The notes under the pieces are model-generated. The model worked only from the letters and a program-made list of their open reading frames with translations. It did no database searches and was not told the origin of the DNA. A stretch of DNA of 27,702 bases. Source: a virus (lineage: Duplodnaviria > Heunggongvirae > Uroviricota > Caudoviricetes). Location of the stretch: the IMG/VR virus record IMGVR_UViG_2706794664_000004, one strand, 5' to 3'. How positions within the stretch are numbered: position 1 is the stretch's first letter; each line of letters opens with the position of its first letter. This document shows, one piece after another, positions 1-20,625 of the stretch. Position numbers and translations under genes: made by a program.

Positions 1-2
1 GT

Positions 3-760: not shown

Positions 761-1152
761 AACACACTGACATTCGTGCCGCAGTGCTGGATGCACTCGA
801 GCAGCATGAACACGGGGCGACGCTGTTTGATGGTCGCCCCGTTGTTTTTGACGAAGAGGATTTTCCTGCGATCGCGGTTTATCTGACGGATGCAGAGTAT
901 ACCGGTGAAGAGCTGGATGCAGATACCTGGCGGGCCACACTGCATATTGAGGTGTTTTTACCGGCACAGGTACCTGATTCGGAGCTCGATCAGTGGATGG
1001 AAAGCCGGATTTATCCGGCGATGACTGCGATCCCTGCACTGGCAGGACTGATTACCACGATGGTTACGCAGGGCTATGAGTATCGTCGTGATGACGATAT
1101 GGCGTTATGGAGCTCTGCGGATCTGACTTATTCCATTACATACGAGATGTGA
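757..1152 (+). CDS. U: tail tube terminator protein, lambda gpU homologue
   Basis: 131-aa [31 protein letters not shown]...[11 protein letters not shown], same length as lambda gpU and near-identical at both termini from memory. Confidence 0.9.
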
Positions 1153-1159
1153 GGACGAT

Positions 1160-1912
1160 ATGGCAACACCAAATCCCCTGGAGCCGGTAAAAGGTGCCGG
1201 TACCACTCTGTGGGTTTACAACGGCAAGGCTGATGCTTATGCAAACCCGTTGTCAGACGATGACTGGCAGCGACTGGCTAAGGTGAAGGATCTGACGCCG
1301 GGCGAGATGACGGCTGAATCCTATGATGATAACTACCTGGATGATGAAGACGCGGACTGGAGCGCGACCGGGCAGGGGCAGAAATCTGCAGGTGATACCA
1401 GTTTTACGCTGGCCTGGAAACCGGGAGAGGAAGGCCAGAAAGGGCTTATAGGCTGGTTTGAAAGCGGCGATGTCCGGGCCTATAAAATCCGTTTTCCGAA
1501 TGGCACGGTGGATGTGTTTCGTGGCTGGGTCAGCAGTATCGGTAAGGCCGTGACGGCGAAAGAAGTGATCACCCGCACGGTGAAAGTCACTAACGTGGGT
1601 AAACCTTCTGTAGCGGAAGAACGCAGCAAAATTACGCCGGTCAGTGCGATTAAGGTGACGCCGACATCCGGTACGGTGGCAAAAGGGAAAACAACCACCC
1701 TGACGGTTTCTTTTGAGCCGGAAAGTGCAACCGACAAGACGTTCAGAGCGGTTTCCGCCGATCCGTCGAAAGCCACCATTAGTGTGAAAGATATGACAAT
1801 TACGGTAAACGGCGTGGCGACAGGTAAGGTGCAGATCCCTGTGGTGAGCGGAAATGGTCAGTTCGCCGCAGTGGCTGAAGTCACCGTTACTGAAGCGGGC
1901 GCTGCAGGGTAA
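1160..1912 (+). CDS. V: major tail tube protein, lambda gpV homologue, with C-terminal Ig-like domain
   Basis: 250-aa [25 protein letters not shown]...; C-terminal [48 protein letters not shown] is a Big_2-type Ig-like fold as in lambda gpV. Confidence 0.9.
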
Positions 1913-1925
1913 ACGGAGGTAATAC

Positions 1926-2357
1926 ATGTTTCTGAAAACAGAACAATTTGAATATAACGGTGTGTCTGTCACGCTTTCCGAATTGTCTGCGCTGCAGCGT
2001 ATCGAGCATCTTGCCCTCCTGAAACGGCGTGCAGAACAGGCAGAATCCAGCGGCAACCTGCAGGTAAGCGTGGAAGATCTCGTCAGAACCGGCGCGTTTC
2101 TGGTGGCGATGTCCCTGTGGCATAACCATCCACAGAAAACGCAGTCACCGTCAATGAATGAGGCCGTGATGAAGATAGAGCAGGAAGTGCTCACCACCTG
2201 GCCTGCCGATGCCATTGCCCGGGCGGAAGACGTGGTGTTGTGCCTGTCCGGGATGATCGAAGCTGTTCGTCCGGATACTGATATTACTGAAGTGGCGAAA
2301 AATAACACGCTGACTGATGATGATTTTTCTGCGGGAAAGTCTTCGACGGCGAGCTGA
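1926..2357 (+). CDS. G: tail assembly chaperone, lambda gpG homologue
   Basis: 143-aa ORF MFLKTEQFEYNGVSVTLSELSALQRIEHLALLKRRAEQ..., good SD (GGAGGT) upstream; position and sequence match lambda gpG. Confidence 0.9.
   Translation: MFLKTEQFEYNGVSVTLSELSALQRIEHLALLKRRAEQAESSGNLQVSVEDLVRTGAFLVAMSLWHNHPQKTQSPSMNEAVMKIEQEVLTTWPADAIARAEDVVLCLSGMIEAVRPDTDITEVAKNNTLTDDDFSAGKSSTAS
2333..2339 (+). promoter_or_regulatory. programmed -1 ribosomal frameshift heptamer G GGA AAG (gpG to gpG-T fusion)
   Basis: GGGAAAG at 2333-2339 with GGA and AAG as zero-frame codons of G, 16 nt before the G stop. The -1 frame continues open into the T homologue (VFDGELNFALRLAREMGRPDWRAMLAGM...). Confidence 0.8.
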
Positions 2358-2663
2358 ACTTTGCCCTCAGACTGGCGCGTGAGATGGGGAGACCCGACTG
2401 GCGCGCCATGCTTGCCGGGATGACATCCACCGAATATGCCGACTGGCGCCGTTTTTACCGCACGCATTATTTTCAGGATACCCAGCTGGATATGCATTTT
2501 TCCGGGCTGACGTACGCTGTACTCAGCCTGTTTTTTTGCGATCCGGATATGCATCCCTCTGATTTCAGTCTGCTTGTCCCCCGGCATGAGGAAGAGCAGG
2601 TGGAGAGGCCGGATGAGGACAAAATGCTGATGCAGAAAGCGGCAGGACTTGCCGGAGGCGTCC
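2339..2663 (+). CDS. T: tail assembly protein, lambda gpT homologue (made only as G-T frameshift fusion); 3' end hidden in N-run
   Basis: -1 frame relative to G reads VFDGELNFALRLAREMGRPDWRAMLAGMTSTEYADWRRFYRTHYFQDTQLDMHFSGLTYAVLSLFF...MLMQKAAGLAGGV, matching lambda gpT from memory. Runs into N-run 2664-2937. Confidence 0.8.
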
Positions 2664-2937
2664 NNNNNNNNNNNNNNNNNNNNNNNNNNNNNNNNNNNNN
2701 NNNNNNNNNNNNNNNNNNNNNNNNNNNNNNNNNNNNNNNNNNNNNNNNNNNNNNNNNNNNNNNNNNNNNNNNNNNNNNNNNNNNNNNNNNNNNNNNNNNN
2801 NNNNNNNNNNNNNNNNNNNNNNNNNNNNNNNNNNNNNNNNNNNNNNNNNNNNNNNNNNNNNNNNNNNNNNNNNNNNNNNNNNNNNNNNNNNNNNNNNNNN
2901 NNNNNNNNNNNNNNNNNNNNNNNNNNNNNNNNNNNNN

Positions 2938-5047
2938 CTGATCCTGCTGCAACAGGGCGGTCAGGTGAAGGACTCCTTCGGCGGGATGATCCCCATGTTC
3001 AGGGGGCTTGCCGATGCGATCACCCTGCCGATGGTCGGGGTCACCTCGCTGGCGGTGGCGACAGGTGCACTGGTGTACGCCTGGTACCAGGGAGATTCCA
3101 CGCTTTCAGCGTTTAATAAAACCCTGGTTCTTTCCGGTAATCAGTCCGGACTGACTGCCGATCGTATGCTGACTCTCTCAAGAGCCGGGCAGGCAGCAGG
3201 GCTGACGTTTAACCAGGCGAGAGAGTCACTGGCAGCCCTGGTGAATGCCGGTGTGCGTGGTGGTGAACAGTTTGATGCCATCAACCAGAGTGTCGCGCGT
3301 TTTGCGTCTGCATCCGGTGTGGAGGTGGATAAAGTCGCTGAAGCCTTCGGGAAGCTGACCACTGACCCGACGTCGGGACTGATGGCGATGGCGCGCCAGT
3401 TCCGTAACGTGACGGCAGAGCAGATTGCGTATGTTGCACAGCTGCAGCGTTCCGGAGACGAGGCCGGGGCATTGCAGGCGGCGAACGATATCGCCACGAA
3501 AGGCTTTGATGAGCAGACCCGTCGCCTGAAAGAAAACATGGGAACACTGGAGACCTGGGCGGATAAAACAGGGAAGGCATTCAAATCGATGTGGGATGCC
3601 ATTCTGGATATCGGTCGTCCGGAATCCTCAGCGGATATGCTCGCCAGTGCGCAGAAGGCATTTGATGAGGCGGATAAAAAATGGCAGTGGTACCAGAGTC
3701 GGAGCCAGCGCCGCGGTAAAACCTCCTCTTTCCGGGCCAACCTTCAGGGCGCATGGGATGACCGGGAAAATGCCCGTCTGGGTCTGGCAGCGGCAACGCT
3801 GCAGTCGGATATGGAAAAAGCCGGTGAACTGGCGGCAAGGGACAGGGCTGAGCGTGAGTCGTCACAGCTGAAGTATACCGGAGAGGCGCAGAAGGCGTAT
3901 GAGCGCCTGCTGACGCCACTGGAGAAATATACCGCCCGGCAGGAAGAGCTGAATAAGGCCCTGAAAGACGGGAAAATCCTGCAGGCGGATTACAACACGC
4001 TGATGGCGTCGGCAAAAAAGGATTATGAGTCGACGCAGAAAAAGCCGTCCGGTGTGAAGGTGTCTGCCGGTGAGCGCCAGGAAGACCAGGCGCATGCAGC
4101 CCTGCTGGCGCTTGAAACTGAGCTCAGGACGCTGGAGAAGCACAGCGGTGCGAATGAAAAAATCAGCCAGCAGCGCCGTGATTTATGGAAAGCGGAAAAT
4201 CAGTATGTGGTCCTGAAAGAGGCCGCCACGAAACGGCAGTTATCTGAGCAGGAAAAATCCCTGCTGGCCCATGAGAAAGAAACGCTGGAGTACAAACGCC
4301 AGCTGGCTGAGCTGGGCGACAAGATTGAACACCAGAAACGGCTGAATGAGCTGGCACAGCAGGCGGCGCGGTTTGAACAGCAGCAGAGCGCGAAGCAGGC
4401 GGCAATCAGCGCAAAAGCCCGCGGACTCACCGACCGTCAGGCGCAGCGGGAGTCGGAAGAGCAGCGCCTTCGTGAGGTGTACGGTGATAATCCGGCTGCG
4501 CTGGCGAAGGCCACATCTGCACTGAAGAACACCTGGTCTGCGGAGGAGCAGCTTCGTGGAAGCTGGATGGCCGGGATGAAGTCCGGCTGGGGCGAGTGGG
4601 CGGAAAGTGCGACGGACAGTTTTTCGCAGGTTAAAAACGCGGCCACGCAGACCTTTGACGGTATTGCACAGAATATGGCAGCGATGCTGATCGGCAGCNN
4701 NNNNNNNNNNNNNNNNNNNNNNNNNNNNNNNNNNNNNNNNNNNNNNNNNNNNNNNNNNNNNNNNNNNNNNNNNNNNNNNNNNNNNNNNNNNNNNNNNNNN
4801 NNNNNNNNNNNNNNNNNNNNNNNNNNNNNNNNNNNNNNNNNNNNNNNNNNNNNNNNNNNNNNNNNNNNNNNNNNNNNNNNNNNNNNNNNNNNNNNNNNNN
4901 NNNNNNNNNNNNNNNNNNNNNNNNNNNNNNNNNNNNNNNNNNNNNNNNNNNNNNNNNNNNNNNNNNNNNNNNNNNNNNNNNNNNNNNNNNNNNNGGGAGT
5001 TTGTCTTCACGAAGGAGGCGACCAGCCGGATTGGTGTCGGCAATCTG
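2938..5047 (+). CDS. H: tail tape measure protein, lambda gpH homologue; both ends inside N-runs
   Basis: Visible translation LILLQQGGQVKDSFGGMIPMFRGLADAITLPMVG...QAIAYVAQLQRSGDEAGALQAAND...KYTARQEELNKALKDGKILQADYNTLMA is collinear with lambda gpH. Island 4997-5047 reads EFVFTKEATSRIGVGNL (gpH C-terminal motif) but in a different frame from the upstream segment. Confidence 0.85.
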
Positions 5048-5297
5048 NNNNNNNNNNNNNNNNNNNNNNNNNNNNNNNNNNNNNNNNNNNNNNNNNNNNN
5101 NNNNNNNNNNNNNNNNNNNNNNNNNNNNNNNNNNNNNNNNNNNNNNNNNNNNNNNNNNNNNNNNNNNNNNNNNNNNNNNNNNNNNNNNNNNNNNNNNNNN
5201 NNNNNNNNNNNNNNNNNNNNNNNNNNNNNNNNNNNNNNNNNNNNNNNNNNNNNNNNNNNNNNNNNNNNNNNNNNNNNNNNNNNNNNNNNNNNNNNNN

Positions 5298-5618
5298 TTT
5301 CGCTGGAAAGTGAAGCCGGATATGGAGGTGAACTCGCAGCCATCGGTGCGTGAAGTGCGTTTTGGTGACGGGTACTCACAGCGTATGGCGGCAGGGCTGA
5401 ATGCTGACCTGAAAACATACAGGGTGACGCTTTCCGTGACCCGGGAGGAGGCCCGGCATCTGGAAGCGTTCCTGGCAGAGCACGGTGGCTGGAAGGCATT
5501 TTTGTGGAAGCCACCCTATGCATACCGGCAGATAAAGGTGACCTGTGCCGGGTGGTCTGCGCGGGTCGGGATGTTGCGCGTTGAGTTCAGCGCGGAGTTT
5601 AAGCAGGTGGTGAACTGA
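5298..5618 (+). CDS. M: tail tip protein, lambda gpM homologue; start inside N-run
   Basis: FRWKVKPDMEVNSQPSVREVRFGDGYSQRMAAGLNADLKTYRVTLSV...RVEFSAEFKQVVN* matches lambda gpM (109 aa) from memory. Stop overlaps L start (TGATG). Confidence 0.85.
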   Translation, partial: FRWKVKPDMEVNSQPSVREVRFGDGYSQRMAAGLNADLKTYRVTLSVTREEARHLEAFLAEHGGWKAFLWKPPYAYRQIKVTCAGWSARVGMLRVEFSAEFKQVVN

Positions 5619-6316
5619 TGCAGGATATTCGCGAAGAAAGTCTGAACGAGTCGGTTAAGTCAGAGCAGTCACCGCGGGTGGTACTCTGGGAAATCGACCT
5701 GACGGTACAGGGTGGTGAGCGGTATTTTTTCTGTAATGAGCTGAATGAAAAAGGGGAGCCGGTCACCTGGCAGGGGCGTAAGTATGAGGCATACCCGATT
5801 GACGGCAGCGGCTTTGAGATGAACGGCCGGGGCAGCAGTGCCAGACCGTCGCTGACGGTGTCCAATCTGTTCGGTCTGGTCACCGGGATGGCGGAAGACC
5901 TGCAGAGTCTGGTGGGGGCCACGGTGGTCCGCCGCCGGGTGTATGCCCGTTTTCTGGATGCGGTGAATTTCGTTGCGGGCAATCCGGAGGCGGACCCGGA
6001 GCAGGAGCTGAGTGACCGCTGGGTGGTGGAGCAGATGTCGCAGCTGACAGCCATGACGGCCTCGTTTGTGCTGGCTACACCGACCGAGACGGACGGGGCG
6101 CTGTTTCCCGGTCGCATCATGCTGGCGAACACCTGTATGTGGGATTACCGGGGAGATGAATGCGGGTATAACGGTCCTGCGGTGGCGGATGAGTTCGACA
6201 ACCCCACCACGGATATCCGTAAGGACAGATGCAGCAAGTGCATGCGCGGGTGTGAACTGCGCAGGAATGTCGGCAATTTTGGCGGTTTCCTTTCCATTAA
6301 TAAACTTTCGCAGTAA
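5618..6316 (+). CDS. L: tail tip protein, lambda gpL homologue
   Basis: 232-aa ORF MQDIREESLNESVKSEQSPRVVLWEIDLTVQGGERYFFCNE..., same length as lambda gpL; conserved Cys-rich C-terminus (CSKCMRGCELR). Confidence 0.9.
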   Translation: MQDIREESLNESVKSEQSPRVVLWEIDLTVQGGERYFFCNELNEKGEPVTWQGRKYEAYPIDGSGFEMNGRGSSARPSLTVSNLFGLVTGMAEDLQSLVGATVVRRRVYARFLDAVNFVAGNPEADPEQELSDRWVVEQMSQLTAMTASFVLATPTETDGALFPGRIMLANTCMWDYRGDECGYNGPAVADEFDNPTTDIRKDRCSKCMRGCELRRNVGNFGGFLSINKLSQ

Positions 6317-6326
6317 ATCCCGGTTT

Positions 6327-6530
6327 ATGACACAGACTGAATCAGCGATTCTGGCACATGCCCGGCGGTGTGCGCCTGCGGAGTCGTGCGGCTTCGTGAT
6401 AAGCACGCCGGAGGGGGAGCGGTATATCCCTTGTGTGAATATTTCCGCAGAGCCGGAGGCGTATTTTCGTATCGCACCGGAAGACTGGCTGCGGGCAGAG
6501 ATGCAGGGGGAGATTGTGGCACTGGTCCAC
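6327..6530 (+). CDS. K: tail tip assembly protein, lambda gpK homologue; 3' part inside N-run
   Basis: ATG 6327 then MTQTESAILAHARRCAPAESCGFVISTPEGERYIPCVNISAEPEAYFRIAPEDWLRAEMQGEIVALVH, the N-terminus of lambda gpK from memory. Confidence 0.85.
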
Positions 6531-6805
6531 NNNNNNNNNNNNNNNNNNNNNNNNNNNNNNNNNNNNNNNNNNNNNNNNNNNNNNNNNNNNNNNNNNNNNN
6601 NNNNNNNNNNNNNNNNNNNNNNNNNNNNNNNNNNNNNNNNNNNNNNNNNNNNNNNNNNNNNNNNNNNNNNNNNNNNNNNNNNNNNNNNNNNNNNNNNNNN
6701 NNNNNNNNNNNNNNNNNNNNNNNNNNNNNNNNNNNNNNNNNNNNNNNNNNNNNNNNNNNNNNNNNNNNNNNNNNNNNNNNNNNNNNNNNNNNNNNNNNNN
6801 NNNNT

Positions 6806-7294
6806 GCCGGTTATGACACGGCACCGGAGGCGGTGTACGCCCGTCTTCACGAACAGCTGGGTGAGGGAACGGTCATCCACATTGTGCCGCGACTGGCCGG
6901 GGCCGGAAAGGGTGGACTGCAGATTGTGCTGGGGGCGGCAGCCATCGTGGGCTCTTTCTTCACTGCCGGGGCATCAATGGCGTTATGGGGTTCAGCCCTG
7001 GCAGCCGGTGGTTTTTCTGCCACCACGATGCTGTTTTCACTTGGAGCCAGCATGATTCTGGGCGGTGTGGCCCAGATGCTGGCCCCGAAGGCAAAAACAC
7101 CGGATTACCGCGCAACGGATAACGGCAGACAGAACACGTACTTTTCCTCACTGGATAACATGATTGCCCAGGGGAACCCGATGCCGGTGCCTTACGGGGA
7201 AATGCTGGTTGGCTCCCGCCGTATATCCCAGGACATCAGCACCCGTGATGAAGGCGGGGGCGGAAAGGTCGTGGTTATCGGGCGGCAGGGGTAA
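6806..7294 (+). CDS. I: tail assembly protein, lambda gpI homologue; 5' part inside N-run
   Basis: After N-run: AGYDTAPEAVYARLHEQLGEGTVIHIVPRLAGAGKGGLQIVLGAAAIVGSFFTAG...NTYFSSLDNMIAQGNPMPVPYGEMLVGSRRISQDISTRDEGGGGKVVVIGRQG*, matching lambda gpI C-terminal two-thirds. Confidence 0.85.
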   Translation, partial: AGYDTAPEAVYARLHEQLGEGTVIHIVPRLAGAGKGGLQIVLGAAAIVGSFFTAGASMALWGSALAAGGFSATTMLFSLGASMILGGVAQMLAPKAKTPDYRATDNGRQNTYFSSLDNMIAQGNPMPVPYGEMLVGSRRISQDISTRDEGGGGKVVVIGRQG

Positions 7295-7339
7295 AAAGAA
7301 TAAAAAAATCCCGCAGTGATCGCGGACAGGAACTGCGGG
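7294..7339 (-). terminator. rho-independent terminator oriented for the minus strand
   Basis: Stem CCCGCAGT (7310-7317) / ACTGCGGG (7332-7339), 14-nt loop. On the + strand it is preceded by AAAAAGAATAAAAAAAT (7293-7309), so on the minus strand the hairpin is followed by a U-tract. Confidence 0.55.
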
Positions 7340-7397
7340 AGAGTTACGAAGATTAAGTGTAAGGAATTATTCTTATATCACGACAAAAAAATTAACG
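7296..7397 (-). ncRNA. candidate ~100-nt small RNA between promoter at 7405-7432 and terminator at 7294-7339
   Basis: Minus-strand -35 TTCACA, 16-bp spacer, -10 TATAAT, about 60 nt upstream of a minus-strand intrinsic terminator. Intervening RNA has no plausible ORF (only GUG-AUA-UAA). Confidence 0.3.
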
Positions 7398-7404
7398 CAG
7401 AGAA

Positions 7405-7432
7405 ATTATACGCGCCACAGTCAGTTTGTGAA
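7405..7432 (-). promoter_or_regulatory. sigma70-like promoter on minus strand (-35 TTCACA / 16 bp / -10 TATAAT)
   Basis: Minus-strand sequence TTCACAaactgactgtggcgcgTATAAT; + strand coordinates: -10 at 7405-7410 (attata), -35 at 7427-7432 (tgtgaa). Confidence 0.45.
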
Positions 7433-7504
7433 AATGTGAAGATATTCAGAATTTTTATGCCATTACCGGTTTTAACCAACAGGATTATCGGTGGGCATGA
7501 AAGA

Positions 7505-7540
7505 AAACCCCGGTATCTGCTGATACCGGGGTTTCTCTTT
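7505..7540. terminator. strong hairpin, possible bidirectional terminator or insulator
   Basis: Perfect 13-bp stem AAACCCCGGTATC (7505-7517) / GATACCGGGGTTT (7522-7534) with 4-nt loop TGCT; T-rich on both flanks. Confidence 0.45.
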
Positions 7541-7637
7541 AGCATGGCAGAAATGTGTTTCATGCTTTTCGGGCGAAGGATATCCGACTTCTGTACGGAA
7601 TGGCAAGTGGCGGTTAATTTATTCAGGGGAAGGCTGT

Positions 7638-10600
7638 ATGGGAAAAGGTGGCGGTAAGGCACACACGCCTCGTGAGGCGAAGGATAATCTCAAATCCACG
7701 CAGATGATGAGCGTGATTGATGCGATTGGTGAGGGACTGATAGAAGGTCCGGTGAAGGGACTGCAGAGTATCCTGGTGAACAAAACCCCGCTGACGGACA
7801 CGGACGGTAATCCCGTGATACACGGTGTGACGGCGGTCTGACGCGCCGGGGAGCAGGAGCAGACACCACCGGAAGGCTTTGAGTCCTCCGGTGCTGAAAC
7901 CGGACTGGGCGTGGAAGTGACGAAGGCAAAACCGGTGACGCGCACCATTACGTCCGCGAACATTGACCGCCTGCGGGTTACCTTCGGGGTGCAGTCACTG
8001 GTGCAGACCACGTCAAAGGGTGACCGAAACCCGACATCCGTCCGCCTGCTGATTCAGTTACAGCGTAACGGTAACTGGGTGACAGAAAAGGATGTCACCA
8101 TTAACGGCAAGACCACCTCGCAGTTTCTGGCGTCGGTGATTCTGGATAATCTGCCTCCCCGTCCTTTTAACATCCGGATGGTCCGGGAGACAGCGGACAG
8201 CACCACGGACCAGCTGCAGAATAAGACGCTGTGGTCGTCATACACCGAAATCATCGATGTGAAACAGTGCTACCCGAACACGGCCATTGTGGGGCTGCAG
8301 GTGGATGCGGAGCAGTTCGGCGGCCAGCAGATGACGGTGAACTACCATATCCGCGGTCGCATCATCCAGGTGCCGTCAAACTATGACCCGGAAAAACGCA
8401 CGTACAGTGGTATCTGGGACGGTAGCCTGAAACCGGCATACAGCAACAATCCGGCCTGGTGTCTGTGGGACATGCTGACTCACCCGCGCTACGGCATGGG
8501 AAAACGTCTGGGGGCGGCGGATGTGGACAAGTGGGCGCTGTATGCCATCGGGCAGTACTGCGACCAGACGGTCCCGGATAGTTTCGGGGAGACCGAGCCG
8601 CGGATGACCTTCAATGCGTACCTGGCACAACAGCGTAAGGCATGGGACGTGCTCAGTGATTTCTGCTCGGCGATGCGCTGTATGCCGGTATGGAACGGCC
8701 AGACGCTGACGTTTGTTCAGGACCGCCCGTCGGATGTGGTGTGGCCGTACACCAACAGCGATGTGGTGGTGGATGATAACGGCGTGGGTTTCCGCTACAG
8801 CTTCAGTGCCCTGAAGGACCGGCACACGGCGGTGGAGGTGAATTATACCGACCCGCAGAACGGCTGGCAGACCTCCACGGAACTGGTGGAAGACCCGGAA
8901 GCCATACTGCGCTACGGACGCAACCTGCTGAAGATGGACGCGTTCGGCTGTACCAGCCGCGGTCAGGCCCACCGTGCCGGACTGTGGGTGATAAAGACCG
9001 AACTGCTGGAAACGCAGACGGTGGATTTCACGCTCGGGTCTCAGGGGCTGCGGCACACACCCGGTGACATCATTGAAATCTGTGATAACGACTATGCCGG
9101 GACCCTGACCGGCGGACGTGTCCTGTCCATTGATGCTGCCACCCGCACTCTGACGCTGGACCGTGAAGTGACACTTCCGGAGACCGGTGCCGCCACGGTG
9201 AACCTGATTAACGGCAGCGGTAAGCCGGTGAGTGTGGACATCACCGAACACCCCGCGCCGGACCGGATACAGGTCAGTACCCTGCCTGATGGTGTGGAGA
9301 CATACGGGGTGTGGGGACTCTCCCTGCCGTCACTGCGCCGTCTCCTGTTCCGCTGTGTCTCCGTCCGGGAAAACACGGACGGCACCTTTGCCATCACGGC
9401 GGTGCAGCACGTACTGGAAAAAGAAGCCATCGTGGATAACGGTGCCCGCTTTGAGCCGCAGTCAGGTTCCCTGAACAGCGTCATCCCACCGGCAGTGCAG
9501 CACCTGACGGCCAGTATCTGGCGCAGGCGAAATGGGACACGCCGCGGGTGGTGAAGGGTGTGCGCTTCAGTCTGCGCCTGACCAGTGGTAAGGGAACGGA
9601 TGCCAGACTGGTGACCACCGCCATCACCGCAGACACGGAGCACCGTTTCAGCGGCCTGCCGCTCGGGGAATACACCCTGACGGTGCGGGCGATAAACAGC
9701 TATGGCCAGCAGGGTGAACCTGCCACCACCACCTTCCGGATTGCCGCACCGGCAGCACCGTCGCGGATTGAGCTGACGCCGGGCTATTTTCAGATAACCG
9801 CAACGCCGCATCTTGCCGTTTATGACCCGACGGTACAGTTTGAGTTCTGGTTCTCGGAAAAGCGGATTGCGGATATCAGGCAGGTTGAAACCAGCGCCCG
9901 CTATCTTGGCACGGCGCTGTACTGGATAGCCGCCAGTATCAATATCAAACCGGGCCATGATTATTATTTTTACGTTCGCAGTGTGAACACCGTTGGCAAA
10001 TCGGCATTCGTGGAGGCTGTCGGTCGGGCGAGCGATGATGCGGAAGGTTACTTGGATTTTTTCAAAGGAGAGATAGGGAAAACACATCTGGCTCAGGAGC
10101 TGTGGACGCAGATTGATAACGGTCAGCTTGCGCCTGACCTGGCTGAAATCAGGACGTCCATTACGGATGTCAGCAATGAAATCACGCAGACTGTCAATAA
10201 GAAACTGAAAGACCAGAGTGCGGCAATCCAGCAGATACAGAAGGTTCAGGTTGATACAAATAATAATCTGAACAGCATGTGGGCTGTGAAGCTGCAACAG
10301 ATGAAGGACGGACGCCTTTATATTGCGGGTATCGGTGCCGGTATTGAGAATACGCCAGCAGGAATGCAGAGTCAGGTGCTGCTGGCGGCAGACAGGATTG
10401 CGATGATTAATCCTGCGAATGGCAACACAAAGCCGATGTTTGTTGGTCAGGGCGATCAGATATTCATGAACGACGTGTTCCTGAAACGCCTGACGGCTCC
10501 CACCATTACCAGCGGCGGTAATCCTCCGGCATTTTCCCTGACACCGGACGGAAAACTGACCGCTAAAAATGCAGATATCAGTGGCAGTGTGAATGCGAAC

Positions 10601-11089
10601 GCCGGGACGCTCAACAATGTCACAATTAATGAGAACTGTCAGATTAAGGGGAAACTGTCAGCCAACCAGATTGAAGGCGATATAGTCAAAACAGTGGGTA
10701 AGGCTTTTCCGCGGGACTCCCGGGCACCGGAGCGGTGGCCATCAGGGACCATTACCGTCAGGATTTATGACGATCAGCCTTTTGACAGGCAAATTGTTAT
10801 TCCGGCGGTGGCATTCAGCGGCGCTAAACATGAGCGGGAGAATAACGATATTTATTCGTCATGCCGCCTGATAGTACGGAAAAACGGTGCTGAAATTTAT
10901 AACCGTACCGCGCTGGATAATACGCTGATTTACAGTGGTGTTATTGATATGCCAGCTGGTCGCGGCCACATGACGCTGGAGTTTTCGGTGTCAGCATGGC
11001 TGGTGAATAACTGGTATCCCACAGCAAGTATCAGCGATTTGCTGGTTGTGGTGATGAAGAAAGCCACCGCAGGCATCAGTATCAGCTGA
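7638..11089 (+). pseudogene. J: central tail fibre / host specificity protein, lambda gpJ homologue, disrupted by an in-frame TGA (7839-7841) and a frameshift near 9506-9515
   Basis: Three ORF pieces (7638-7841, 7911-9554, 9548-11089) are collinear with lambda gpJ from MGKGGGKAHTPREAKDNLKSTQ to the C-terminus. Frame 0 continues in homology through the TGA (TAV*RAGEQEQTPPEGFESSG). Homology switches from frame 0 (PPAVQHLTA) to frame 2 ([17 protein letters not shown]) near 9510. Confidence 0.8.
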
Positions 11090-11107
11090 ATTTTATAACC
11101 CATATAC

Positions 11108-11135
11108 GGGCGCCAGAAATGGCGCCTTTTTTATT
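11108..11135 (+). terminator. rho-independent terminator after J
   Basis: GGCGCC (11109-11114), loop AGAAAT, GGCGCC (11121-11126), followed by TTTTTTATT. Confidence 0.65.
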
Positions 11136-11156
11136 GCAGAAAAGCGAGAGGTAATT

Positions 11157-11760
11157 ATGCGTAAAGTTTGTGCAGCCATTTTGTCCGCAGCCATCTGTCT
11201 GTCCGTATCCGGTGCGCCTGCATGGGCGTCTGAACATCAGTCCACACTGAGCGCGGGGTATCTTCATGCCCGTACGAACGCTCCCGGCAGCGATAATCTG
11301 AACGGGATTAACGTGAAATACCGTTATGAGTTTACGGACGCGCNNNNNNNNNNNNNNNNNNNNNNNNNNNNNNNNNNNNNNNNNNNNNNNNNNNNNNNNN
11401 NNNNNNNNNNNNNNNNNNNNNNNNNNNNNNNNNNNNNNNNNNNNNNNNNNNNNNNNNNNNNNNNNNNNNNNNNNNNNNNNNNNNNNNNNNNNNNNNNNNN
11501 NNNNNNNNNNNNNNNNNNNNNNNNNNNNNNNNNNNNNNNNNNNNNNNNNNNNNNNNNNNNNNNNNNNNNNNNNNNNNNNNNNNNNNNNNNNNNNGACCGG
11601 AAGTGATGACGGTCGCCACAGCAACACGTCTCTGGCGTGGGGGGCTGGCGTGCAGTTTAACCCGACCGAATCCGTGACCATTGACCTTGCTTATGAAGGT
11701 TCCGGTAGTGGTGACTGGCGAACGGATGCATTTATTGTTGGTATCGGATACCGTATCTGA
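11157..11760 (+). CDS. lom: Lom/Ail/PagC-family outer membrane protein (lambda Lom homologue); middle hidden in N-run
   Basis: N-terminus MRKVCAAILSAAICLSVSGAPAWA (signal peptide) ...NGINVKYRYEFTDA and C-terminus ...SLAWGAGVQFNPTESVTIDLAYEGSGSGDWRTDAFIVGIGYRI* match lambda Lom beta-barrel motifs. N- and C-terminal parts are in different frames across N-run 11344-11594. Confidence 0.8.
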
Positions 11761-11864
11761 CAACAGACGCCGATTTATCTTCTGTAAATATTGTTATGAT
11801 ACGCAGGTTCATCCACCTTATGGGGTGAACTGCGTTTGAGGAAACGTAAAGTTACACTGTCCTG

Positions 11865-11900
11865 AAGCCCGTGGCGTCACTGCTGCGGGCTTTTTTTATT
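11865..11900 (+). terminator. rho-independent terminator after lom
   Basis: Stem AAGCCCG (11865-11871) / CGGGCTT (11886-11892), then TTTTTTTATT (11891-11900). Confidence 0.6.
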
Positions 11901-11911
11901 GGTGGAAAAGT

Positions 11912-14539
11912 ATGACAGTAAAAATTTCTGGCGTGCTTAAAGATGGCACAGGAAAACCAGTACAGAACTGCACCATTGTGCTGAAGGCCAGACGAACCAG
12001 CAGCACGATGGTGGTGAACACGGTGGCCTCTGAAAATCCGGATGAAGCCGGACGTTACAGCATGGATGTTGAGCATGGTCAGTACAGCGTCACCCTGCTG
12101 GTTGAAGGTTTTCCGCCTTCACATGCCGGGACCATTACCGTCTATGAAGGTTCCAGACCAGGTACGCTGAATGATTTTCTCGGTGCCATGACGGAGGATG
12201 ATGTCCGACCGGAGGCACTGCGCCGCTTTGAGCAGATGGTGGAAGAGGTGTCACGTAACGCCTCCGCGGTTGCACAGAATACGGCAGCCGCGAAAAAATC
12301 AGCCAGCGAGGCGGCAACTCATGCAACCGATGCTGCAGCCTCAGCACGTGCCGCCAGCACGTCAGCCGGACAGGCCGCGTCGTCGGCTCAGTCAGCGTCT
12401 TCCAGCGCAGGAACGGCATCGACAAAGGCCCGTGAAGCAGCAAAAAGTGCTGCTGCAGAGTCATCAAAAAGCGCGGCAGCTACCAGCGCCAGTGCCGCGA
12501 AAACGTCAGAAACGAATGCCGCAGCATCACAAAAATCGGCAGCCACTTCTGCATCCACAGCGACCACGAAGGCGTCAGAAGCTGCCACCTCGGCACGGGG
12601 TGCGGCGGCCTCAAAAGAGGCAGCGAAATCTTCAGAAACGAATGCATCATCAAGTGCCAGTAGTGCAGCTTCCTCGGCAACGGCGGCAGGAAATTCCGCG
12701 AAGGCGGCAAAAACGTCCGAGACGAACGCTAAGTCTTCTGAAACAGCAGCGGGACAGAGCGCCTCAGCTGCGGCAGGTTCAAAAACAGCGGCTGCATTAT
12801 CTGCCAGTGCCGCGTCAACAAGTGCCGGGCAGGCCTCAGCCAGTGCCACCGCCGCCGGAAAATCGGCAGAAAGCGCCGCATCATCCGCTTCAACAGCCAC
12901 AACGAAGGCTGGCAAAGCCACTGAGCAAGCCACTGCAGCAGCGAGGTCTGCTTCTGCAGCAAAAACCTCTGAAACAAATGCAAAGACTTCAGCAGACAAT
13001 GCTGCTTCCTCTAAGGCAGCAGCCGCATCGTCAGCCAGTTCAGCGGCGTCATCGGCATCATCTGCGTCTGCTTCAAAAGATGAGGCGACCAGACAAGCGT
13101 CAGCAGCGAAAGGTAGTGCCACGACAGCAACAACGAAAGCATCAGAGGCGGCAGGCAGTGCGACGGCTGCATCTCAGAGCAAAGTTGCTGCTGAATCCGC
13201 GGCAACGCGCGCCGAGACAGCAGCAAAACGGGCAGAGGATATTGCATCCGCCGTGGCGCTGGAGGATGCGAGCACGACGAAAAAGGGGATAGTACAGCTC
13301 AGCAGTGCGACCAACAGCACTTCCGAGTCACTGGCGGCAACGCCAAAAGCGGTTAAGGCGGTAATGGGTGAAACGAACAAGAAAGCGCCCTTAAATAGTC
13401 CTGCACTGACCGGAACGCCAACAACACCAACTGCGCGACAGGGAACGAATAATACCCAAATCGCAAGCACGGCTTTCGTTATGGCTGCGATTGCCGCCCT
13501 TGTAGATTCGTCACCTGATGCACTGAACACGCTGAACGAGCTGGCTGCGGCGCTGGGCAACGACCCGAATTTTGCGACCACCATGACTAACGCGCTTGCG
13601 GGTAAGCAACCGAAAGATGCCACTCTGACGGCGCTGGCGGGGCTTGCTACTGCGGCAGACAGGTTTCCGTATTTTACGGGGAATGATGTCGCCAGCCTGG
13701 CAACCCTGACAAAAGTCGGGCGGGATATTCTTGCGAAATCGACCGTTGCTGCCGTTATCGAATACCTCGGTTTACGAGAACTCGGCACAAGCGGGGAGAA
13801 AATACCGTTACTCAGTACAGCGAATACCTGGACTAATCGACAAACATTCAGCGGTGGCCTTTCTGGTGAACTATCCGGCAATGCTTCTACAGCTGCAAAA
13901 TTAAAAACTGCCAGGAAAATAAGCAATGTGGCTTTTGATGGTTCCTCCGATATCACATTAAAAGCAAGTCATGTTGGTGCGTTTGCCTTAGGGAAAACAG
14001 GAAGCACCGTTGCGAATGATAAAGCAGTTGGATGGAACTGGAGTAGCGGAGCCTATAACGCAACTATTAGTGGTGCATCAACGTTAATTATTCATTTTTA
14101 TATGGGAGAAGGAAGTTGTCCTGCAGCTCAGTTTCGGATTAATTATAAAAATGGCGGTATTTTTTATCGTTCAGCCCGTGATGGTTATGGTTTTGAAGCC
14201 GACTGGTCCGAATTTTACACCACCAGAAAACCTTCAGCAGGAGATGTTGGTGCACTGCCGTTATCTGGTGGTCAACTGAATGGTGCACTGGGTATCGGAA
14301 CATCCAGTGCTCTTGGCGGTAATTCGATTGTATTGGGTGATAATGACACGGGCTTTAAACAAAAAGGCGATGGTAATCTGGATGTTTATGCTAATAACGT
14401 CCATGTTATGCGCTTTGTCTCCGGAAGCATTCAAAGTAATAAAACCATAAATATTACGGGACGTGTTAATCCCTCGGATTACGGTAACTTTGATTCCCGC
14501 TATGTGAGAGATGTCAGACTTGGCACACGAGTTGTTTAG
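11912..14539 (+). CDS. stf: side tail fibre protein Stf (constant N-terminal part plus fused cassette v1), ended early by in-frame TAG at 14537-14539
   Basis: 875-aa ORF; N-terminus MTVKISGVLKDGTGKPVQNCTIVLKARRTS resembles lambdoid Stf proteins; long Ala/Ser/Thr-rich repeat region; C-terminal part shares modules with the downstream fibre cassettes. Crossover site A lies at codons for VIEYLGL (13754-13774). Confidence 0.85.
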   Translation: MTVKISGVLKDGTGKPVQNCTIVLKARRTSSTMVVNTVASENPDEAGRYSMDVEHGQYSVTLLVEGFPPSHAGTITVYEGSRPGTLNDFLGAMTEDDVRPEALRRFEQMVEEVSRNASAVAQNTAAAKKSASEAATHATDAAASARAASTSAGQAASSAQSASSSAGTASTKAREAAKSAAAESSKSAAATSASAAKTSETNAAASQKSAATSASTATTKASEAATSARGAAASKEAAKSSETNASSSASSAASSATAAGNSAKAAKTSETNAKSSETAAGQSASAAAGSKTAAALSASAASTSAGQASASATAAGKSAESAASSASTATTKAGKATEQATAAARSASAAKTSETNAKTSADNAASSKAAAASSASSAASSASSASASKDEATRQASAAKGSATTATTKASEAAGSATAASQSKVAAESAATRAETAAKRAEDIASAVALEDASTTKKGIVQLSSATNSTSESLAATPKAVKAVMGETNKKAPLNSPALTGTPTTPTARQGTNNTQIASTAFVMAAIAALVDSSPDALNTLNELAAALGNDPNFATTMTNALAGKQPKDATLTALAGLATAADRFPYFTGNDVASLATLTKVGRDILAKSTVAAVIEYLGLRELGTSGEKIPLLSTANTWTNRQTFSGGLSGELSGNASTAAKLKTARKISNVAFDGSSDITLKASHVGAFALGKTGSTVANDKAVGWNWSSGAYNATISGASTLIIHFYMGEGSCPAAQFRINYKNGGIFYRSARDGYGFEADWSEFYTTRKPSAGDVGALPLSGGQLNGALGIGTSSALGGNSIVLGDNDTGFKQKGDGNLDVYANNVHVMRFVSGSIQSNKTINITGRVNPSDYGNFDSRYVRDVRLGTRVV
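12260..13260 (+). repeat. Ala/Ser/Thr-rich imperfect tandem repeats inside stf (motif AAKTSETNA recurs four times)
   Basis: Translation SAAKTSETNAAASQKSAATSA / AAKSSETNASSSASSAASSA / AAKTSETNAKSSETAAG / SAAKTSETNAKTSADNAASS; corresponding DNA repeats gc.aaaac.tc.ga.ac.aa.gc. Confidence 0.7.
13755..13780 (+). other. invertase crossover site A (gix/pix-like, 26 bp) inside stf
   Basis: TTATCGAATACC-TC-GGTTTACGAGAA; reverse complement of site B is identical over 21 bp; resembles Mu gix (TTATCCAAAACCTCGGTTTACAGGAA) as I recall it. Confidence 0.7.
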
Positions 14540-14689
14540 ACCATGAAGAAAGGCGTGATGTATGAAAAATCAGGCCATGTAATCACGGGGCTTGGTATTA
14601 TCGGTGAAGTCGATGGTGATGATCCGGCAGTATTCAGACCAATACAAAAGTTAATTAACGGAACATGGTATAACGTATCGCAGGTATAA
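14540..14689 (+). other. displaced C-terminal 49 codons of stf cassette v1, downstream of the in-frame amber
   Basis: Same frame as stf reads [49 protein letters not shown] (TAA 14687-14689), homologous to the C-termini of cassettes v2, v3, v4 (...RPIQ..INGTWYNxxSx*). Confidence 0.75.
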
Positions 14690-14691
14690 TC

Positions 14692-15225
14692 ATGCAGCAT
14701 TTAAAAAACATTGTCGCAGGTAATCCAAAAACCGTTGAACAATACCAGCTAACAAAGAATTTTGATGTTATCTGGTTATGGTCCGAAGATGGAAAAAATT
14801 GGCATGAGGAATTAAAAAACTTTCAGGAGGATACAATAAAACTGGCTTACACAGTTGAGGGAATAATTATTGCTATAGACAAGGATGTATCAGCAATTAA
14901 TCCAGAAGGTTTAAGTGTCGTTGAGTTGCCTGATATTACAGCAAATCGCCGGGCTGATATTTCGGGCAACTGGATGTTCAAAGATGGTGCGGTGATAAAG
15001 CGAACTTATACCGAGGAAGAGCAAAGGCAACAAGCGGAAAATGAAAAGCAGAGCCTGCTGCAGCTCGTCAGGGATAAAACCCAGCTGTGGGACTCTCAGC
15101 TACAGCTGGGCATCATTTCCGATGAGAATAAACAAAAATTAACCGAGTGGATGCTCTATGCGCAGAAGGTTGAATCCACAGACACCTCCAGCCTGCCAGT
15201 AACGTTTCCCGAACAACCAGAATGA
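14692..15225 (+). CDS. tfa: tail fibre assembly protein Tfa (partner of cassette v1)
   Basis: 177-aa [43 protein letters not shown]...[10 protein letters not shown]...; Tfa-family motifs; immediately after the fibre C-terminus. Confidence 0.85.
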
Positions 15226-15300
15226 GAGAAGGCCCGCTATCGGGCCTTAATTTTTATTCAGGCTTTTGTGGCCATTCAGGATTTGCCGTATCCACACGGC
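14929..15300. repeat. direct repeat copy 1 (tfa 3' half plus shared terminator plus 3' end of minus-strand tfa)
   Basis: About 370 bp, roughly 90% identical by eye to 17998-18369 (for example cctgatattacagcaaatcgccgggctgatattt... and aaggcccgctatcgggccttaatttttattcaggcttttgtggccattc). Confidence 0.8.
15229..15258. terminator. bidirectional intrinsic terminator between convergent tfa genes
   Basis: AAGGCCCG-CTAT-CGGGCCTT followed by AATTTTTATT; sits between the + tfa stop (15225) and the minus tfa stop (15254). Confidence 0.6.
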
Positions 15301-15781
15301 TGACCAGAACACTGTAGCGTTCCCATGCTTCCAGTCGTGTGCGTTCCTCGTCTGTTGCCATATTCAGCCTGACAGCGCGTTCCAGCGGCTGGATGACTGA
15401 TTCAGCTTCGGAAAGCAATGCGGCCTTTTGTGATTCGGCCTGTTGTTGCTGTTCGTCAGCCGTATAAATCCGTTTAACCACAGCTCCGTCCTTAAACATC
15501 CACTTACCGGAATCATCAGCACGACGATTAGCTGTAATATCAGGAACTTCAACTATGCTTAGCCCTTCAGGATTAATAGTTGAAACGTCTTTACTGACAG
15601 CAACGATGATGTTGTTCTCATCGTAAGCAATTTTTATGGTGTCTGGCTGAAAATTCTTTTGTTCCTCATACCAGTTTTTGCCATCTTCGCAAAAGAGCCA
15701 TACCACGCCCGCTTTTTTAGTTAGCTGGTATTGTTCCGGTGTTTTCGGATTCCCGGCCTTAATATTTTTCAGGTGCATCAT
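15254..15781 (-). CDS. tfa: tail fibre assembly protein Tfa (partner of cassette v2)
   Basis: Minus-strand ORF; likely start at ATGATG 15776-15781 ([23 protein letters not shown]...) preceded by SD GGGGAG; ORF track begins 12 codons further upstream. C-terminus ...[14 protein letters not shown]. Confidence 0.8.
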
Positions 15782-15782
15782 C

Positions 15783-16696
15783 TTAAACACTCCCCACGTT
15801 GTACCATATTCCCCCAATCAATTTCTGAATTGGCCTTCTGGCAACAGTGTCGACAATATCATCCGCATTGCTGTTAATTGCGGCTGTTAAAACATAACCT
15901 GACGCATCGCCAAAGCCGTAGTCGCGCCATACGTTTTTATATTCAATGCTGCCAAGACGAATATCCCGAACGACATGATTATGCAGCCATGTGCTTAACC
16001 AGTTGTTTTCCCACACTGAACCATAAATATCGCCACTAGACGCAACTTGCGCACCACTTCCCAGCGCAAATCCCCCATCTGTTTTAAAAATGAAATCACC
16101 ACCACCATCTGAACCGTTATTAATATGAACACCATCACCACCGTTATCTTTCCACAAAAACATACGAATTCTTCCGTCTTCGTTGGCGAATGTAATGTGG
16201 TGGCGGTAATTACTTTTTAATCTAAAATTGCTGCCATTAGATTCAATATCTTTATAAAGATGTAATCCTAACTCATCAATATGTCCGATACGCGAACCAT
16301 TTGAATAGAAGCTAATAATACCATCTCCATCTTGCCTAAATCCGGTGTCGTTATCTCCCAGAACAATGGAGTTTTCACCCAGTGCGTTATCAGTAGCTCC
16401 AATAGCTAGACCTCCTTTAATTTTGGCCCCGTGGCTGACAGATATAGCACCTGTTCTCAGATTTATAGCGAATGGCCTTAATGGGCCGATATTACCGTTT
16501 TCGCCTTGTCCTTCAGCCGTCGGAATGAAATGAAGAAAATCTTCTGAACGACGGAAAATTAGACCGAAGGTATCATTGAAAATTCGCAGCGCATTCACCG
16601 TGCCAATTTTCAGTTCTCCGGTCATTTTATCGCCGGAACGCTGAACGGCGTTACCAGCCTTGTTTACCGTTTCCTGTAAACCGAGGTATTCGATAA
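15783..16696 (-). CDS. silent alternative tail-fibre C-terminal cassette v2 (no own start; 5' end is crossover site B)
   Basis: Minus-strand frame reads [41 protein letters not shown]...[18 protein letters not shown]; first 8 residues identical to the Stf junction peptide; upstream is N-run. Confidence 0.75.
16671..16696 (-). other. invertase crossover site B (inverted relative to site A)
   Basis: + strand TTCCTGTAAACC-GA-GGTATTCGATAA; reverse complement TTATCGAATACCTCGGTTTACAGGAA. Confidence 0.7.
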
Positions 16697-16981
16697 CGGC
16701 NNNNNNNNNNNNNNNNNNNNNNNNNNNNNNNNNNNNNNNNNNNNNNNNNNNNNNNNNNNNNNNNNNNNNNNNNNNNNNNNNNNNNNNNNNNNNNNNNNNN
16801 NNNNNNNNNNNNNNNNNNNNNNNNNNNNNNNNNNNNNNNNNNNNNNNNNNNNNNNNNNNNNNNNNNNNNNNNNNNNNNNNNNNNNNNNNNNNNNNNNNNN
16901 NNNNNNNNNNNNNNNNNNNNNNNNNNNNNNNNNNNNNNNNNNNNNNNNNNNNNNNNNNNNNNNNNNNNNNNNNNNNNNNNG

Positions 16982-17758
16982 GAGAGTCAGGGAGCATTTA
17001 ACCATCCTTACTGGATGTGCAAAGGCTCATGGGCTTATGCAAATAATAAGGTCATTACAGATACAGGTTGCGGAAATATTTGTCTTGCAGGTGCTGTGGT
17101 GGAAGTTATTGGCACTCGCGGCGCAATGACCATACGCGTTACCACGCCGAGCACGTCCAGCGGTGGCGGAATTACTAACGCTCAATTCACTTATATTAAT
17201 CATGGTGATGCTTACGCTCCTGGCTGGCGACGAGACTACAACACGAAAAATCAACAACCTGCATTTGCTTTAGGGCAAACAGGAAGCACTGTCGGAAATG
17301 ATAAAGCTGTTGGCTGGAACTGGAATAGCGGGGTCTATAACGCAAACATTGGTGGCGCATCGACATTAATCCTCCACTTCAATATGAATACGGGGAGCTG
17401 CCCTGCTGTACAGTTCCGCGTGAATTACAGGAACGGCGGTATTTTTTATCGTTCAGCGCGTGATGGTTATGGCTTTGAAGCTGACTGGTCAGAGTTTTAC
17501 ACCACAACCCGCAAACCCTCTGCGGGAGATGTTGGTGCATATACGCAGGCAGAATGTAACTCAAGGTTTATTACAGGTATTCGCCTTGGTGGTCTGTTAT
17601 CTGTTCAGACATGGAATGGTCCCGGATGGTCTGACAGGTCAGGTTATGTTGTTACCGGTTCCGTTAACTCAAACAGAGATGAACTAATTGATACAACTCA
17701 GGCAAGGCCAATTCAGTATTGCATTAATGGGACGTGGTATAACGCGGGGAGTATTTAA
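16982..17758 (+). CDS. alternative tail-fibre C-terminal cassette v3 (+ orientation; 5' end and presumed crossover site inside N-run)
   Basis: Open frame from 16982 (ESQGAFNHPYWMCKGSWAYANN...) to TAA 17756-17758. Central module AFALGQTGSTVGNDKAVGWNWNSGVYNANIGGASTLILHFNMNTGSCPAVQFRVNYRNGGIFYRSARDGYGFEADWSEFYTT is about 85% identical to stf v1; C-terminus RPIQYCINGTWYNAGSI. Confidence 0.75.
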   Translation, partial: ESQGAFNHPYWMCKGSWAYANNKVITDTGCGNICLAGAVVEVIGTRGAMTIRVTTPSTSSGGGITNAQFTYINHGDAYAPGWRRDYNTKNQQPAFALGQTGSTVGNDKAVGWNWNSGVYNANIGGASTLILHFNMNTGSCPAVQFRVNYRNGGIFYRSARDGYGFEADWSEFYTTTRKPSAGDVGAYTQAECNSRFITGIRLGGLLSVQTWNGPGWSDRSGYVVTGSVNSNRDELIDTTQARPIQYCINGTWYNAGSI

Positions 17759-17760
17759 CG

Positions 17761-18294
17761 ATGATGCACTTAAAAAACATTTCTGCTGGTAATCCTGAAA
17801 CAAAAGAGCAATACCAGCTAACGAAACAATTTAACATCAAATGGCTTTATACAGAGGATGGGAAAAACTGGTATGAGGAACAAAAGAACTTTCAGCCTGA
17901 TACGTTGAAAATGGTCTATGACCACAACGGCGTTATTATTTGTATTGAAAAGGATGTTTCAGCAATTAATCCGGAAGGCGCAAGCGTCGTTGAGGTTCCT
18001 GATATTACAGCAAATCGCCGGGCTGATATTTCAGGTAAATGGATGTTCAAAGATGGCGTAGTGATAAAGCGAACTTATACCGGGGAAGAGCAGAGGCAAC
18101 AAGCGGAAAATGAAAAGCAAAGCCTGCTACAGCTCGTCAGGGATAAAACCCAGCTATGGGACTCACAGCTACGGCTGGGCATTATTTCCGACGAGAATAA
18201 ACAAAAATTAACCGAGTGGATGCTCTATGCGCAGAAGGTCGAATCCACAGACACCTCCAGCCTGCCAGTAACGTTTCCCGAACAACCAGAATGA
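17761..18294 (+). CDS. tfa: tail fibre assembly protein Tfa (partner of cassette v3)
   Basis: 177-aa [43 protein letters not shown]...; C-terminal half near-identical to the tfa at 14692-15225. Confidence 0.85.
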   Translation: MMHLKNISAGNPETKEQYQLTKQFNIKWLYTEDGKNWYEEQKNFQPDTLKMVYDHNGVIICIEKDVSAINPEGASVVEVPDITANRRADISGKWMFKDGVVIKRTYTGEEQRQQAENEKQSLLQLVRDKTQLWDSQLRLGIISDENKQKLTEWMLYAQKVESTDTSSLPVTFPEQPE

Positions 18295-18369
18295 AACAAG
18301 GCCCGATATCGGGCCTTAATTTTTACTCAGGCTTTTGTGGCCATTCTGGCTTTGCCGTATCCACACGGC
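17998..18369. repeat. direct repeat copy 2 (paralogous to 14929-15300)
   Basis: See copy 1; ends at N-run 18370. Confidence 0.8.
18298..18327. terminator. bidirectional intrinsic terminator between convergent tfa genes (paralogue of 15229-15258)
   Basis: AAGGCCCG-ATAT-CGGGCCTT followed by AATTTTTACT. Confidence 0.6.
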
Positions 18370-18910: not shown

Positions 18911-18911
18911 A

Positions 18912-19948: not shown

Positions 19949-20002
19949 TGGCCGTTTCCGGCCTGCATGGCATGATTTGCGCTTTTGGACGGGAGATTCA
20001 GC

Positions 20003-20620: not shown

Positions 20621-20625
20621 TTAAA

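Follow-up and report, generated by a model that had tools for sequence, protein, structure and literature searches.

A twice-interrupted tail-tip gene J in a defective lambda-like prophage of Shigella sonnei

Background

J forms the tail tip of bacteriophage lambda. A homologue of this gene lies at positions 7638 to 11089 (plus strand, 3452 nt) of a viral sequence of 27,702 nucleotides (IMG/VR record IMGVR_UViG_2706794664_000004, Caudoviricetes), which is called the window here. The original prediction, made from the letters of this sequence, described the gene as a pseudogene carrying two independent lesions, an in-frame TGA at codon 68 and a frameshift near 9510, and took the lambda-like tail module around it to be probably defective, unless the lesions were errors of assembly. 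The locus thus raises the question of whether J is broken in the organism that carries it and, if so, whether the broken gene is simply decaying or is read, or used, in some other way.

Results and Discussion

Identity of the J gene

Intact relatives of the window J, identified by megablast, have a length of 3474 nt (1157 aa). The closest of these among phage records is 95.4% identical to the window gene, and the best among complete E. coli genomes is 97.7% identical over its full length. The best E. coli relatives are annotated as 'gpJ: phage attachment tail tip protein J' and are intact; a homologue covers at least 80% of J in 3,703 E. coli records. An intact 1157-aa relative matches the lambda J protein (8iyk_J) with E=0 and 1810 bits, and fragments of the window J match lambda J on both sides of the deletion described below with E values of about 1e-36. 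Precomputed Pfam matches exist for the 547-aa and 513-aa fragments of S. sonnei genomes, which are identical to those of the window, and comprise FNIII-A_GpJ, Phage-tail_3, Ig_J, Ig_J_second, Phage_Tail_Tip and Ig_GpJ_C. By its full-length homology to lambda J, by this characteristic set of domains and by its position in the operon (after K and I, before lom and stf), the gene belongs to the gpJ family.

Functional members of the family consist of a single open frame of ~1130-1160 aa. In the window this stretch is divided among three ORFs, all on the plus strand. The N-terminal fragment (67 aa, 7638-7841) has a product that is on record verbatim. The middle fragment (547 aa, 7911-9554) shares the frame of the N-terminal one and terminates at an out-of-frame stop past the deletion. 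The C-terminal fragment (513 aa, 9548-11089) is in frame +2 and is the counterpart of the C-terminal, receptor-binding region of lambda J from lambda residue 633 onward. Since the uninterrupted frame is lacking, we classify the window J as a pseudogene of the gpJ family and not as a functional member.

The two lesions

The window gene was aligned to two intact 3474-nt J genes, one from E. coli (NZ_CM142696.1, 12001-15474 of locus L002) and one from a phage (ON470626.1, locus L001). Exactly two disabling differences separate it from both. The original prediction had proposed such a comparison with the J genes of related prophages as a check on its reading, and these genes are indeed 3474 nt long, carry TGG at codon 68 and possess the 22 bases discussed below; the alignment supports the view that J is a pseudogene, inactivated by two lesions that are independent of each other.

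The first lesion is at 7839-7841 (plus strand). The in-frame translation of 7638-11089 reads MGKGGGKAHT...VIHGVTAV*RAGEQEQTPPEGFESSG..., which confirms the TGA at the predicted codon; in both intact genes codon 68 is TGG, encoding Trp, so that the lesion amounts to a G-to-A change at 7841. In E. coli a UGA with a C after it forms a leaky stop, and near-cognate misreading of UGA by tRNA-Trp inserts Trp. Taken alone, the codon-68 TGA might therefore be an incomplete null, leakage of the UGA restoring the ancestral Trp. The decisive lesion in J is the frameshift.

This second lesion is a deletion of 22 bp, whose junction lies at 9504-9512 (plus strand). The only indel in the alignment across the whole of J is a single 22-nt gap after window base 9511. 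At this site the intact gene reads ...GCACCTGACGGTGGAGGTGAGCGCAGCTGACGGCCAGTAT... and the window gene ...GCACCTGACGGCCAGTAT...; the missing bases amount to one full period of a direct repeat, from one copy of CTGACGG to the next. The two copies are 22 bp apart, with an extended repeat that matches at 10 of 11 bases, and the copy remaining in the window occupies 9504-9510. The exact breakpoint is ambiguous inside the CTGACGG repeat. The simplest account of the deletion would be slippage, or recombination over short homology, between the CTGACGG copies.

The effect on the reading frame is as predicted. Frame 0 reads ...PPAVQHLTA as far as 9512, and the homologous reading goes on in frame 2 from 9506/9512. 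Against lambda J (8iyk_J, 9e7m) the alignment of the frame-0 piece ends at residue 626 and that of the frame-2 piece picks up at residue 633, the aligned stretches flanking the deletion being residues 526-626 and 633-732. The loss at the junction is thus ~7 residues (7 residues plus one base), so that the earlier estimate of about 8 extra residues in lambda was accurate. Deletion of 22 bp results in a shift of frame at about codon 626.

Recurrence of the lesions in S. sonnei

The caveat attached to the original prediction, that the stop and the frameshift are errors of sequencing or draft assembly and that J is intact in the organism, deserved attention, because the window is a low-quality draft scaffold. 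It contains nine runs of N of 222-299 nt each (2424 N in total), the lengths of which are unlike those of the true sequence (274 N replace 384 nt at the T/H junction and 628 nt at K/I), and it is probably misjoined to another prophage. J itself, however, is inside a single N-free piece (6805-11343, 4539 nt), which shows 100.000% identity to two closed S. sonnei chromosomes, HE616528.1 and CP061367.1. The former is the genome of Shigella sonnei 53G (PMC5447701), a lineage II strain (PMC5447701; PMC7373316).

Ten S. sonnei J loci (L005-L014) were fetched from independent assemblies, mostly megabase-scale chromosome records. Both the TGA at codon 68 and the deletion junction are present in 10/10 of these loci. 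The truncated products are also widespread: the assembly collection lists the exact 67-aa product in 633 blocks, of which 15 include contigs >1 Mb, and the fragments of 67, 547 and 513 aa are on record verbatim on 551, 248 and 125 contigs, respectively. In addition, an assembler would not be expected to collapse its graph over a repeat of 7 bp. As the lesions are identical in ten independent assemblies and the fragments recur on hundreds of contigs, they are not assembly errors; the independent closed genomes refute that explanation, to which we assign a vanishingly small probability, and the caveat can be dropped.

Outside S. sonnei neither lesion was found. Among 5,426 complete E. coli genomes none has the codon-68 TGA, the best match of a 70-nt query being 69/70 (in 4,583 places). 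A 70-nt query across the deletion junction has no one-piece match in the same 5,426 genomes and aligns there in two pieces, 22 nt apart. A scan of GTDB species representatives for the junction found none that carries it and thus no second species. An E. coli J with a single lesion was also sought in order to arrange the two events in time, and 0/5,426 complete genomes carry either one. Taken together, the J lesions are genuine. They are fixed in the S. sonnei loci that were fetched and were not seen outside the species in the collections searched: the same lesions recur in independent assemblies and are absent from the sister group, as in a pseudogene fixed in a lineage. The two lesions could be used to mark the lineage, since within the genomes searched they occur in S. 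sonnei alone.

Public databases already contain the fragments under names that refer to J, and the finding is that of an ordinary, already annotated pseudogene. Fragment proteins are deposited as 'host specificity protein J [Shigella sonnei]'. Shigella sonnei records give the exact 67-aa product as host specificity protein or as hypothetical protein, and E. coli records give it as host specificity protein J; the exact 547-aa product is a 'host specificity J domain protein [Shigella sonnei 53G]' and the exact 513-aa product a 'Host specificity protein J [Shigella sonnei]'. Some records now list the fragments as separate 'host specificity protein J' genes. They should be annotated as one pseudogene, not as three genes.

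The surrounding prophage

A lambda-type tail module extends from 96 to ~14,500 of the window, in the order Z, U, V, G, T, H, M, L, K, I, J, lom, stf. Compared with intact E. coli prophages, its readable parts show 97-99% identity in DNA and, by tblastn, 98.5-100% identity in protein. The genes Z to I were located at 185-7294 (plus strand) by tblastn with the proteins of an intact E. coli prophage, a query set that ran from Z to tfa. Z, U, V, G and L are fully readable and intact in the window, and T, H, M, K and I are partly masked by N. Downstream of J, at 11157-14539 (plus strand), are lom, with a run of N inside it, and the side tail-fibre gene stf, present as an 875-aa ORF. The T/H and K/I regions and lom were first read as deleted or diverged from gaps in blastn alignments; the gaps are caused by the runs of N, and the closed genomes have these genes at full length. 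The window itself gives no basis for judging T, H, K, I and lom, parts of which are hidden by N.

In most closed S. sonnei genomes Z to I are all called at full length. The products there have the same lengths as in the intact E. coli prophage: Z 191, U 131, V 250, G 143, T 137, H 857, M 109, L 232, K 247, I 193 or 226, and lom 199 aa. J is the sole tail gene that is broken in all the closed S. sonnei genomes compared. The full-length state of the other tail genes fits recent decay of the prophage, and is also compatible with some selection on them.

The head region is in a very different state. In 53G the genes upstream of Z are rusA, the Q antiterminator, a DNA methyltransferase, a SASA esterase, a holin, DUF1327, and IS3-family and IS21 (istA/istB) elements; from Z onward come Z to I, the J fragments, lom and stf. 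In an intact relative with an identical Z protein (locus L017) the position of the IS elements is occupied by Nu1, A, W, portal, S49 protease, D, E, FI and FII. Between holin/DUF1327 and Z, in both 53G and CP061367.1, no terminase, portal, protease, decoration, capsid, FI, FII or endolysin gene is called. The left edge of the surviving late region is preserved in the window at 1-167 (no strand assigned). Bases 1-95, continuous with IS21, match S. sonnei loci and not intact E. coli prophages, to which homology begins at 96; the istA gene of 53G ends just upstream of the sequence that starts the window. Only the last 25 codons of an FII-like head-tail joining gene remain (residues 93-117 at 93-167, by tblastn).

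The prophage has thus lost virion genes and is a defective, or cryptic, one. Because its packaging, head and endolysin genes are gone, it cannot make virions. It is defective whatever the state of J, and would be without virions even if J were intact. The prediction of a defective element is upheld, and more strongly than the letters of the window alone allowed, since the head genes are lost as well as J broken. As a refinement, closed genomes show every tail gene except J at full length. Beyond annotation, the broken J is of very little importance, and the prophage cannot yield particles.

The window holds a second prophage as well. Its segment 16981-27702 is the tail module of a P2-like prophage on the minus strand, 100% identical to the S. 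sonnei prophage adjoining pheST/ihfA. The lambdoid remnant and the P2-like prophage are ~565 kb apart in CP032523.1. In the window they meet across the N run 16701-16980, inside homologous invertible tail-fibre cassettes, and this junction is probably a misjoin of the scaffold. The lambdoid fibre cassette (13751-16700) occurs in both orientations among S. sonnei genomes, and a 60-aa fragment of its own invertase remains. Because the window is a gapped draft scaffold, neither the adjacency of the two prophages nor the apparent ORFs that span N are to be trusted.

Decay of J and its alternatives

Individual S. sonnei strains carry lesions of their own. AGRD01000049.1 has an additional 17-bp deletion in J (window 9291-9307), gene I is called in two pieces in CP044191.1 and gene H in two pieces in CP029794.1, and an IS lies within stf in both CP060117.1 and CP022672.1. 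Across eleven copies of J, four sites vary. The changes number 3 synonymous and 2 non-synonymous, the latter two being different changes at one site, 9343, and do not suffice for a dN/dS estimate. Few as they are, these strain-specific lesions and J variants fit an absence of selection. Gene loss and the large-scale accumulation of pseudogenes and IS elements are documented for S. sonnei (PMC7373316).

We conclude that J is, almost certainly, a neutral pseudogene fixed in the lineage, inside a decayed lambda-like prophage of S. sonnei, and none of the observations speaks against this. Judged from its sequence, J has probably lost its function, and the resulting pseudogene appears to be neutral. 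The gene would have been inactivated twice and independently, the nonsense change from TGG to TGA at codon 68 being one of these events. Both lesions predate the divergence of the sampled S. sonnei strains, and are now fixed. J appears to be drifting without selection, strains having gained lesions of their own in J, H, I and stf, and IS-associated deletion has taken the packaging, head and endolysin genes.

One could suppose instead that full-length J is still expressed by recoding, with UGA read as Trp and a programmed frameshift near 9510. The leaky context of the UGA and the ancestral Trp, which is the residue that near-cognate insertion would restore, are in keeping with such a scheme, and lambda tail operons do make use of one programmed frameshift (G-T). 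Intact relatives of J need no recoding, however; thousands of them have the TGG and the 22 bases. The junction arose from a deletion and offers no conserved slippery site, its bypass is implausible, and one strain has the further frameshifting deletion of 17 bp. Two rare recoding events in combination would have a negligible efficiency, and the element has no head genes. We regard expression by recoding as exceedingly improbable.

The retention of so much of the tail module invites another thought, namely that the J fragments, or else the tail cluster, were retained because they serve some new purpose, as a C-terminal receptor-binding fragment made on its own or as a head-less tail resembling an F-type pyocin. 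The whole C-terminal region of J is contained in the 513-aa ORF, the ten tail genes, lom and stf are full length in most closed genomes with a holin upstream, and the tail-fibre protein of the F2 pyocin belongs to the J family (25vf_A, E=6e-121). F-type particles, on the other hand, require an intact J-like protein, since it is such proteins that make up the tail tip in lambda and in F-type pyocins; no endolysin is called upstream of the tail cluster; and the lesions in H, I, stf and J of individual strains are those expected without selection. A new role for these genes is therefore very unlikely. A related suggestion is that an ancestor of S. sonnei kept a head-less particle of the F-type tailocin kind, the J lesions being its recent inactivation, or else that the lone 513-aa fragment affects phage adsorption or colicin-like competition. 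The tailocin-like version draws on what has been retained besides J, namely the remaining tail genes with lom and stf, the holin, and a fibre cassette that is still being inverted, and we give this suggestion as a whole very little credence. Recoding and neofunctionalisation of J were both considered, and support was found for neither; we retain the neutral, lineage-fixed pseudogene as the explanation of the locus.

Comparison with known systems

Among the closest known counterparts of the window J is gpJ of lambda (PDB 8iyk, 9e7m). The order of domains is common to the two along their whole length, and both genes are located after K and I and before lom and stf. The window J differs in having a nonsense codon and a frameshifting deletion of 22 bp. 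The intact allele, at 1157 aa, is 25 aa longer than lambda J (1132 aa).

Among prophages, close counterparts are the intact lambdoid, 'PPompW'-type prophages of E. coli at the ompW-trp locus (for example NZ_CM142696.1, NZ_CM176589.1 and phage LC567832.1), with a tail module of 97-99% DNA identity. They have the same gene order from Z to stf/tfa and the same invertible fibre segment as in S. sonnei. Unlike the S. sonnei copy, with IS elements in place of the head module and a broken J, they still have terminase, portal and head genes and an intact J of 3474 nt. Nor does the S. sonnei element qualify as an F-type (lambda-like) tailocin. A tailocin of this kind has a head-less tail cluster, an intact J-like tip/fibre protein and a lysis cassette; of these the element shows the first, its J being broken and the region upstream having no called endolysin.

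Defective lambdoid prophages and the pseudogenes of Shigella are textbook material. The cryptic lambdoid prophages Rac, Qin and e14 of E. coli K-12 exhibit IS-associated deletion together with point lesions, and tail-fibre, tfa and invertase cassettes survive in them. The S. sonnei remnant does not differ from these in kind; it adds a further case, in which the tail module is unusually complete.

State of the scaffold and its join to a P2-like prophage

The window contains nine runs of N, each of 222-299 nt and together amounting to 2424 N. They lie at 2664-2937, 4699-4994, 5048-5297, 6531-6804, 11344-11594, 16701-16980, 18370-18647, 23412-23710 and 23984-24205. Their lengths differ from those of the true sequence in closed S. 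sonnei genomes; for instance, 274 N stands for 384 nt in one place and for 628 nt in another, which identifies the window as a gapped draft scaffold. ORFs spanning runs of N (e.g. 2384-2941, 6066-7055 and 6368-7294) are artefacts. For the tail genes T, H, M, K and I, for lom and for the tape-measure gene of P2 type, the window by itself gives no basis for judging their state.

At 16701-16980 a run of N also links the lambda-like remnant to the minus-strand tail module of a P2-like prophage (16981-27702), which comprises genes for fibre, tfa, invertase, gpU, tape measure, gpE, tube, sheath and gpD. An S. sonnei prophage adjoining pheST/ihfA matches this module with 100% identity. In the closed genome CP032523.1 about 565 kb lie between the remnant and the P2-like prophage, and in the ADUU01 draft the two are on separate contigs. 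The join at 16701-16980 is probably a scaffold misjoin made through the homologous invertible tail-fibre cassettes; a true rearrangement, produced by invertase or by homologous recombination, is the less likely explanation.

At the opposite end of the window (1-167; 6871-9810 in locus L015), an IS21 element (istA/istB) and an IS3-family element immediately adjoin the remains of an FII-like head-tail joining gene, which has been truncated to its final 25 codons (93-167). These elements stand where the terminase-to-head module and endolysin of the prophage would be, the whole module having been replaced.

An invertible tail-fibre cassette

In the lambdoid remnant, the cassette for the C-terminal tail fibre and tfa occupies 13751-16700 (~2.95 kb; 16110-19059 in the S. 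sonnei locus L006, with L008 collinear), with an overlap of 25 nt at its left boundary (13751-13775). Its orientation in 53G, CP032523.1, CP029794.1 and AGRD01000049.1 is opposite to that in the window and CP044151.1. The presence of both orientations among strains indicates that the segment still flips in S. sonnei. The invertase adjoining the cassette is only a 60-aa fragment; that of the P2-like prophage (19985-20590) is intact, at 195-201 aa, and may catalyse the inversion in trans. Since the window cassette is 98.8% identical to the 53G copy, compared to 99.7-100% in its flanks, paralogous cassettes may have been collapsed here into one consensus, or combined into a chimeric one.

Variation within S. 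sonnei

Several strains carry secondary lesions in the remnant. J has an additional 17-bp deletion in AGRD01000049.1 (window 9291-9307), gene I is called in two pieces in CP044191.1, the tape-measure gene H is called in two pieces with segments duplicated in CP029794.1, and an IS3-family insertion lies within stf in CP060117.1 and CP022672.1. These lesions look like decay in progress, and some may be long-read assembly errors.

S. sonnei is a very young clonal species. Site 9343, within the J pseudogene, has three alleles in it, so that a single base has undergone two independent non-synonymous changes: T (Leu) in the window, 53G, CP061367.1 and AGRD01000049.1, and A (His) in CP032523.1. The third allele, G (Arg569), is the ancestral base, as in E. 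coli.
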